A stretch of DNA of 64,000 nucleotides from Escherichia coli. GTDB taxonomy: Bacteria; Pseudomonadota; Gammaproteobacteria; Enterobacterales; Enterobacteriaceae. A program made the position numbers. Where the stretch lies: NCBI RefSeq assembly GCF_965641715.1, contig NZ_OZ282453.1. The stretch is one strand, 5' to 3'. Positions 5,408-8,400 of the stretch are shown here, one piece after another; the stretch's first letter is position 1; every line of letters begins with the position of its first letter.

Positions 5408-8400
5408 AGGAGGTTGCTGCGCTCATGGCCTGCACGTCCAGGTAAGGGCAAGCGCGGGGATTTTCCCCGCGCATCTGACTAGCAGATTCATTTTCTCATG
5501 GCACCCCTTTTACACTTCAGTTAGTGCATGTTTTTTTCGATGCACTAATAGAACCATCATTACAGACAAATTTGCCGCCTGCCGTACAGTGTGAGATCCC
5601 CCCTTTCGAACCAGAACAGGGTTTGCGCCCGGCATCGGCATAAAAGGAAACAAGCGTTCCCATAAACAAAATAAGTGCCAGTTTTTTCATATAACCTCCA
5701 TGGTTTATCGAATCTTATGTTCGATTTGAACGTTATACGCTGGTTTATTTTGATACCGTTGATGAGATCAAAGATCGGGTGAATTGATTAAAAATAAGCC
5801 AGATGGACGTATGGGCAAGGATTATGGTTTTATTTGTCATACAAATAAATATAATAGGCGCTTCCGATGTAGACCCGTATTCTTCGCCTGTACCACGGGT
5901 CGGTTTTAGTACAGGCGTTTTCTTTAAATATCCTTCAGGAACGTTTACGCGGCATCATGCGTAGAAGTGTGTTGTCCTTCCAGAAATAGTGGTGTGCCAG
6001 TGCAGCCGCAGCGTGCAAACCGATGACAAAATATCCCAGATTCGCCAGCGTTTCATGCCACGACTTTAAGCTATCTACCCGTTCGAAATTGGCCTCTGAA
6101 GCGTAAGGCATCGTCAAACCAAACGCAAACCACGGGTTGCCTCGGTTATACATCATCACCAAACCAATCACTGGCAGCGCAATAAACAGGAGATAAATCA
6201 CCAAATGTCCCAAATGCGCCAGTCCCGTCATCATCGGTTTTGGCTTAGGTATAATCGGCGGGGTTGGGTATTTCAGCCTTAACAAAAGACGAACGACCAT
6301 CAGCACGAGAATTGATATGCCGCAGGAAACATGAATCATGTTGATGAGTGGCCGATCGCTACGTGGGAAGAAACCCCGAAACTCCATTGCGCAATACGCT
6401 GCGATAACCAGCAAAAAGACCAGCCAGTGAATGCTGATTTGTAACCTTGAGTATTTATTTTCCATAACATTTCCTGCTTTAACATAATTTTCCGTTAACA
6501 TAACGGGCTTTTCTCAAAATTTCATTAAATATTGTTCACCCGTTTTCAGTACGTTACGTTTCACTGTAAGAATGGAGATTGCCCATCCCGCCATCCTGGT
6601 CTAAGCCTGGAAAGGATCAATTTTCATCCGAACGTTCCTGACAGGAGAAAACCATGAGTAAAGTTGGTATTAACGGTTTTGGTCGTATCGGTCGACTGGT
6701 GTTGCGTCGATTACTTGAAGTCAAAAGCAACATAGACGTTGTCGCTATTAATGATCTCACTTCTCCAAAAATTCTCGCCTACCTGCTGAAACATGATTCA
6801 AACTACGGACCGTTCCCCTGGAGCGTTGATTTTACGGAAGATTCACTTATCGTTAATGGGAAAAGTATCGCGGTTTACGCCGAAAAAGAGGCTAAAAATA
6901 TTCCGTGGAAAGCGAAAGGTGCAGAAATCATTGTCGAATGTACTGGCTTTTATACCTCCGCCGAGAAATCGCAGGCGCATCTTGATGCTGGTGCGAAGAA
7001 GGTGTTGATTTCCGCTCCTGCCGGTGAAATGAAAACCATCGTTTATAACGTTAATGACGACACTCTGGATGGCAACGATACCATTGTTTCCGTGGCGTCA
7101 TGCACCACTAACTGCCTTGCGCCGATGGCCAAAGCCTTGCATGACAGTTTCGGGATAGAAGTCGGCACGATGACGACCATTCATGCCTATACTGGCACCC
7201 AGTCACTGGTGGATGGCCCGCGTGGTAAAGATTTACGTGCTTCACGCGCAGCGGCAGAAAATATCATTCCCCACACTACGGGCGCGGCAAAAGCCATTGG
7301 TCTGGTGATCCCGGAACTGAGCGGCAAACTGAAAGGTCATGCGCAACGCGTGCCGGTGAAAACAGGTTCGGTCACTGAACTGGTATCGATTCTCGGAAAA
7401 AAAGTGACTGCCGAAGAGGTGAATAACGCACTTAAACAAGCAACCACCAATAACGAGTCATTTGGTTATACCGATGAAGAAATAGTCTCTTCCGATATCA
7501 TTGGCAGCCATTTCGGTTCGGTGTTTGATGCCACGCAAACGGAAATTACCGCCGTGGGCGATTTACAACTGGTGAAAACGGTCGCCTGGTACGATAACGA
7601 ATATGGCTTCGTCACGCAGCTTATTCGCCCCCTCGAAAAATTCGCTAAACTCTGACGCGCACAGGCGGAGGAAAAAACCTCCGCCTCTTTCACTCATTAA
7701 GACTGTAAATAAACCACCTGGGTCTGCAGATATTCATGCAGGCCATGTTTACCATCTGCGCCGCCAATACCGGATTTACGCCATCCGGCGTGGAAGCCTT
7801 GCATAGCTTCGAAGTTTTCACGGTTGATGTAAGTTTCACCAAACTTCAGCCCTTTAATGGCTTTCATCGCGACGTTCAGATTTTGGGTATAGATTGATGA
7901 GGTCAGGCCGTAATCACTGTCATTAGCCATTGAGATAGCATCTTCCAGCGTGTCGAATGCGACAACTGGCAGCACCGGGCCAAAGGTTTCCTCATGCATA
8001 ATCGACATTTCCTGGCGAACATCCAGCAGCAATGTCGGCGGATAATAATATCCTTTCCCCTCTACCGCTTTGCCACCCAACGCCACTCTCGCCCCTTCTT
8101 CTACTGCGCGCGCCACTTTTTGCTCGACCCTTTCCAGCGCCGCGGCGTTAATCAACGGCCCCATCGCAATGTCGTTGCGTTCAGCGGGGTTACCAAATTG
8201 AACCGCCTGCATCGCTTCACCCAGCCGATTGACGAACTGATCATAAATGCCTTTCTGTACATAAACACGTTCTGCACAGTTACACACTTGCCCACTATTA
8301 ATGACGCGTGAATCAACGATGGCTTTGACTGCCAGTTCAAGATCGGCATCGTCCATTACGATAGCTGGTGCTTTACCCCCCAGTTCCAGGCACACTTTGG

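Follow-up and report, generated by a model that had tools for sequence, protein, structure and literature searches.

Does the gapC gene of this Escherichia coli strain encode a working second glyceraldehyde-3-phosphate dehydrogenase (GAPDH), or has it shared the fate of its counterpart in K-12, which is a pseudogene? The question was raised by the initial annotation of a stretch of 64,000 nucleotides (the whole of which is called the window here), in which gapC was described as an intact gene that carries the NAD-binding and catalytic cysteine motifs, so that the strain may express a second GAPDH. We addressed it by examining the reading frame and its surroundings, the protein family and active-site residues, the state of the locus across complete E. 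coli genomes, and a single unusual substitution close to the C-terminus.

The gapC reading frame and its surroundings

In the ORF listing of the window, gapC appears as a single long reading frame at 6654..7655 on the forward strand, which begins with ATG and runs for 333 codons before its TGA stop codon. The coordinates, length and frame given in the initial annotation all agree with this, and a ribosome-binding site is present as well (Table 1). The same gene model is found in TB06051, the closest complete genome, with 99.9% identity to the window across 1.5 kb: its RefSeq CDS, annotated as “gap”, coincides exactly with the frame when projected onto the window. On the 5' side of gapC lie trg, hokB, ydcA and the divergently oriented cybB, and on the 3' side the convergent aldA, followed by ydcF and hrpA. 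By its position between cybB and aldA and its DNA identity of at least 96% to E. coli gapC alleles, the gene is the E. coli gapC orthologue. We also considered whether gapC is atypical in composition, as a sign of lateral transfer, and rejected this idea, given that its G+C content is 48.0%, against 49.5% for positions 1-40900, the part of the window without prophage.

Table 1. Coordinates of gapC and associated features in the window, with the evidence for each.
Feature	Position	Strand	Evidence
Intergenic region of the divergent genes cybB and gapC, presumed site of the gapC promoter	6466..6653		2 differences from K-12 in 188 bp
Shine-Dalgarno sequence AGGAG, 6 nt 5' of the ATG	6643..6647	+	direct reading; kept in 10 alleles
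gapC CDS, type I NAD-dependent glyceraldehyde-3-phosphate dehydrogenase, 333 codons and TGA	6654..7655	+	ORF, profiles, PDB match, TB06051 CDS
GFGRIG, codons 8-13, Rossmann-fold NAD-binding glycine motif	6675..6692	+	G8, G10 and G13 invariant in aligned GAPDHs
Lys39 codon AAA, intact; TAA in K-12	6768..6770	+	K-12 30-mer in 1,154 of 5,426 genomes
Catalytic Cys150 codon TGC, inside SCTTNC	7101..7103	+	alignment; essential in PMC8615399
Catalytic His177 codon CAT	7182..7184	+	alignment; essential in PMC8615399
A7 run, codons 248-250, intact; A6 in K-12, giving a frameshift	7397..7403	+	K-12 30-mer in 1,046 of 5,426 genomes
Codon 326 CCC (Pro), rare missense in the C-terminal helix; ACC (Thr) in all other alleles examined	7629..7631	+	alignments, 30-mers
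9-bp G+C-rich hairpin in the gapC-aldA gap, terminator-like, without a strong U tract	7663..7686		-18.5 kcal/mol, z -4.0

The resemblance between the window and TB06051 is uneven. Identity is 99.9% around gapC (6400-7900) against 97.9% over positions 1-28963 of the window, and the similarity between the two is therefore mosaic in this region. Their collinearity stops at about position 40966, near the start of ttcA, the attachment site of the Rac prophage in K-12. The remaining 23 kb (approximately 40967-64000) match structural genes of lambdoid prophages, namely those for the gpJ tail tip, tape measure, terminase large subunit, portal and tail fibre, at 96-99% identity in E. coli genomes from pigs and humans; TB06051 has no prophage at ttcA. 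A further difference was observed in a ydbA/bigA-type autotransporter gene on the reverse strand (23365-29356), which is a single CDS of 5,886 nt in TB06051. A 2-bp deletion near position 26632 divides the window copy into 2 ORFs that overlap (23365..26643 and 26627..29356), and the gene looks frameshifted in this strain. Inside the same gene, a 30-bp tandem repeat (28571-29011; 14.8 copies, 90% match) is about 2 units (60 bp) longer in the window than in TB06051.

Protein family and active-site residues

For the assignment of the protein to a family, we compared its scores to the curated cutoffs of profile models. The window GapC passes the cutoff of TIGR01534, the NCBIfam model for type I GAPDHs (447.7 bits against 367.2; E = 2.4e-134), and its residues 3-325 cover the profile from position 1 to position 330 of 330. 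It also has the two-domain architecture of a GAPDH, with an N-terminal NAD-binding domain (PF00044, Gp_dh_N, residues 3-102) and a C-terminal catalytic domain (PF02800, Gp_dh_C, residues 155-313), and an AlphaFold2 model of the protein was obtained with a pLDDT of 97.2. Among proteins of known structure, EcGAPDH1 (PDB 7C5F, with a mutant series 7C5G-7C5R) is of equal length, identical in 331 of 333 residues, and has the same Cys150 and His177. GapC of O157:H7 (UniProt P58072), encoded at the same cybB-gapC-aldA locus, is identical to the window protein in 330 of 333 residues. Considering the TIGR01534 match, the presence of both Pfam domains and the near-identity to 7C5F, we conclude that the reading frame is not a chance ORF.

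Conservation of individual residues was determined from 2 alignments, of 70 and 98 diverse GAPDH homologues. Eight of the residues present in the window GapC (G8, G10, G13, C150, H177, T180, R198 and R232) are invariant among 71 aligned GAPDHs, and 5 more (S149, T151, R195, T209 and G210) are near-invariant, at 90% or above. None of the phosphate-site residues (T180, R195, R198, T209, G210 and R232) is missing, and each is conserved at 90% or above. The acidic residue that selects for NAD, Asp34, is present as well and is Asp in 79 of the 98 homologues. The motifs reported in the initial annotation were all located, that is, GFGRIG with Asp34 for NAD binding and SCTTNC with the catalytic Cys150, and His177 was found in addition to these. 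Altered catalytic residues on careful alignment would, according to that annotation, have spoken against a second GAPDH; none was found substituted when compared to either set of homologues.

The function of Cys150 and His177 has been studied directly in EcGAPDH1. This enzyme is catalytically active, with a Km of 0.73 mM for D-G3P; its activity is abolished in the C150A mutant and lowered approximately 38,000-fold in C150S and 8,000-fold in H177A, while its crystal structures capture the thioacyl intermediate and 1,3-BPG (PMC8615399). The protein for which D-G3P oxidation was demonstrated carries Thr326 and Asp68 (PMC8615399). The window GapC differs from it at precisely these 2 positions: it has Asn68, which is common to TB06051 and others, and the rare Pro326, which is discussed separately below.

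Judged from its sequence, the window GapC is a type I GAPDH and a paralogue of GapA. The housekeeping enzyme GapA (WP_000153502.1) has the same fold, chemistry, and catalytic and cofactor motifs (His, GFGRIGR), but it is only 47% identical to the window GapC and is encoded at another locus, and the window protein scores below the cutoff of the GapA-type model NF011954 (303.2 against 662). We further weighed whether the protein could be a non-glycolytic relative, for example an Epd-like erythrose-4-phosphate dehydrogenase (E4PD) or an ArsJ-associated GAPDH, as it matches the NCBIfam models of both with strong E-values. Epd/GapB is indeed a homologue within the GAPDH superfamily, but the window GapC is no member of that group, as its scores stay far under the curated cutoffs of the E4PD models (277.5 against 530.55 for TIGR01532; 278.2 against 539 for NF010058), and the same holds for the ArsJ-associated model (306.3 against 450), whereas the type I cutoff is passed. 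In addition, gapC is flanked by cybB and aldA and has no arsJ neighbour, and the oxidation of D-G3P with the expected intermediate and product in crystals is documented for an enzyme that is almost identical to it. A substrate other than glyceraldehyde-3-phosphate is thus extremely improbable.

Loss, retention and expression of gapC in E. coli

The K-12 pseudogene (gapC_1/gapC_2) is located at the orthologous locus, with 98.7% DNA identity to the window across 1.5 kb. In the K-12 strain AB1157, RefSeq lists gapC as a pseudogene (“frameshifted; internal stop”), and alignment with the window allowed us to place both lesions: codon 39 has changed from AAA to TAA, and 1 bp has been lost from a run of 7 adenines, leaving A6 and a shifted frame. 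A third difference is the substitution Arg18Gly. The window is free of all 3, and the disruption of gapC in K-12, which the initial annotation had taken as its point of comparison, is hereby confirmed and located.

To establish how widespread these lesions are, we carried out a census with lesion-specific 30-mers, of which the nonsense 30-mer matches only where the K-12 stop codon is present. The gapC locus was found in 5,417 of the 5,426 complete E. coli genomes, and 21% of the complete genomes contain the nonsense 30-mer (Table 1 gives the counts for both lesions). The length of the match (1,500 versus 1,501 bp) was also considered as a proxy for the frameshift and rejected, as the 1-bp deletion in FDAARGOS_1268 turned out to be intergenic, with an intact gapC. 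When 8 genomes without the K-12 lesions were sampled, with identities of 96.0-99.9% and O157:H7 among them, gapC was annotated as intact in all 8. Pairwise comparison of 10 gapC alleles gave dN/dS values of 0.02-0.10, with dS reaching up to 0.22, from which we conclude that the GapC protein is under purifying selection in E. coli.

K-12-type lesions are carried by natural isolates of human, pig and chicken origin, and also by isolates from a frog and from river water. Strain KFu023, isolated from river water in Japan, has the same K-12-type pseudogene, again annotated as “frameshifted; internal stop”. Considering that so many natural isolates carry these lesions, the broken allele characterises a natural lineage and did not arise through domestication in the laboratory. 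A different kind of loss was observed in SCPM-O-B-7615, a strain from raw milk, in which IS1A replaces the 3' four-fifths of gapC together with the 3' end of aldA (locus 3755-5932); this loss is independent of the K-12-type loss. Strain N3 has an intact gapC next to an aldA gene annotated with a frameshift.

An intact gapC is already known (1998) and is the usual state in most E. coli, with K-12 as the exception. Espinosa-Urgel and Kolter (Mol Microbiol, 1998; 28:325) reportedly described an intact gapC that is induced by fresh water in natural isolates. A summary of their work by its first author likewise mentions an intact gapC in environmental isolates and its preferential expression in fresh water (PMC2949598). 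Our literature search on the intact gene versus the K-12 pseudogene returned no match; among the papers in which gapC does appear, one merely uses a K-12 gapC deletion strain (PMC3080795), and another uses gapC as a qPCR marker for E. coli, citing UniProt P58072 (PMC10614358).

With regard to expression, sigma-S RNA polymerase binds between gapC_1 and cybB in K-12, as seen from a ChIP-seq peak for sigma-S in that intergenic region (PMC4447067), and the K-12 gapC-1 and gapC-2 transcripts are rpoS-dependent and seen during slow growth (PMC2759082). A gapC transcript has also been reported in EPEC (PMC6333774). Because the window has an intact frame, the catalytic, NAD and phosphate residues, and an upstream region that is nearly the same as the one bound by sigma-S and giving rise to rpoS-dependent transcripts in K-12, it is plausible that the strain makes a second GAPDH, as the initial annotation had suggested. 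The gene could nevertheless be intact and effectively silent, leaving this strain with no second GAPDH activity. Such a reading would be compatible with our scan of 6350-7800 for consensus sigma-70 promoters, which returned 2 sites where 2.1 are expected by chance, so that the intergenic region shows no sigma-70 promoter above chance level, and also with the role of GapA as the housekeeping enzyme and the dispensability of gapC in the K-12 lineage. It is harder to reconcile with the selection acting on the protein across the species, with the sigma-S-related evidence attached to an almost identical upstream region, and with the transcript in EPEC and the fresh-water induction in natural isolates, and we therefore consider a silent gene very unlikely. 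At the other end of the gene, the hairpin in the gapC-aldA gap is identical in K-12, O157 and TB06051; our terminator scan did not call this hairpin, which is without a T-run.

We consider it highly probable that gapC in the window is the ancestral, uninterrupted allele, encoding a 333-residue type I NAD-dependent phosphorylating GAPDH that would serve as a condition-specific second enzyme. The chemical steps that it would perform are established for the GAPDH family and have been shown for the near-identical EcGAPDH1. Cys150 would attack glyceraldehyde-3-phosphate while His177 serves as the base, and the hydride would be transferred to NAD+ held in the Rossmann site formed by GFGRIG and Asp34, leaving a thioacyl enzyme. 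Phosphate bound at T180, R195/R198, T209-G210 and R232 would then lead to the release of 1,3-bisphosphoglycerate. As for the physiology, the literature suggests that gapC would be transcribed from the cybB-gapC intergenic region in slow-growth, sigma-S and fresh-water conditions, which would make GapC a second GAPDH specific to those conditions. On this reading, K-12 and its natural relatives, about one-fifth of the complete genomes, represent the derived state in which the gene has been lost. The window allele carries, in addition, the rare substitution Thr326Pro.

The proline at residue 326

The codon for Thr326 (ACC) is found in K-12, O157, TB06051 and 6 divergent alleles, and the PDB protein has Thr326 as well, as do 11 further full-length proteins of the same cluster, including one from Citrobacter freundii. 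Within the 5,426 complete E. coli genomes, a 30-mer containing the Pro326 codon was absent throughout, while the Thr version was found in 4,850. The proline is, moreover, the sole difference between the gapC genes of the window and TB06051, amounting to 1 non-synonymous and 0 synonymous changes. These observations would fit an alternative in which an intact frame encodes a crippled enzyme, with the proline kinking or destabilising the C-terminal helix, and gapC in an early stage of decay that runs parallel to, but independently of, the decay in K-12. Indeed, the AlphaFold2 prediction puts residue 326 well inside the C-terminal helix, near its midpoint (residues 317-332), and Pro is never found there in the 98 diverse GAPDHs (Leu in 55, Thr in 9, and Phe, Val and Met in 6 each). 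A further point in its favour is that at least 2 independent losses of gapC have occurred elsewhere, through the K-12-type lesions and through the IS1-associated truncation.

Several observations argue against a crippled enzyme, however. The site is only 8 residues from the C-terminus, directly past residue 325, which is the last one matched by TIGR01534, and the part of the protein around it varies in length among homologues. AlphaFold2 models with Pro326 and with Thr326 have the same secondary structure and are indistinguishable in confidence (pLDDT 97.2 versus 97.3), bearing in mind that the method is insensitive to point mutations. In addition, the exact Pro326 protein has been deposited before (WP_001718244.1 / EMW21815.1, from E. 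coli 2845650) and is also found in Logan assemblies. The variant exists on 2 backgrounds, of which the first matches the window without a difference across 4,002 bp, and the second departs from it at 42 sites, including 7 synonymous sites within gapC. In other words, E. coli 2845650 (GCA_000355435.2, AQDR01000073.1) and Logan assembly ERR14867472 differ at 42 of 4,002 bases, and yet both encode the Pro326 GapC. Its presence on 2 backgrounds speaks against an error in sequencing and points to a tolerated variant that has persisted, recurred or spread. Since there are 2 Pro326 haplotypes, and TB06051, the closest genome to the window in other respects, carries Thr326, we attribute this distribution to recurrent mutation or recombination.

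Weighing both sides, we regard a crippled enzyme as unlikely, though not negligibly so, and predict that the Pro326 allele probably encodes an active GAPDH. That the substitution is anything other than neutral seems distinctly doubtful to us; if it were, it could be a recurrent or recombining change that alters the stability of the enzyme, for example towards a more flexible, cold-active form in a fresh-water niche, or it could begin an independent inactivation.

The analysis does not advance an open question, as the intact gapC was reported in 1998, and the structure and kinetics of the enzyme were published in 2021. Its value lies mainly in a point of annotation, with Pro326, the sole unusual feature of this allele, as a minor curiosity. 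For the species, K-12 is a poor reference where gapC is concerned: most E. coli have a working gene for a second GAPDH that is under purifying selection, and for strains other than K-12, metabolic models as well as experiments in which gapA is depleted should allow for gapC.
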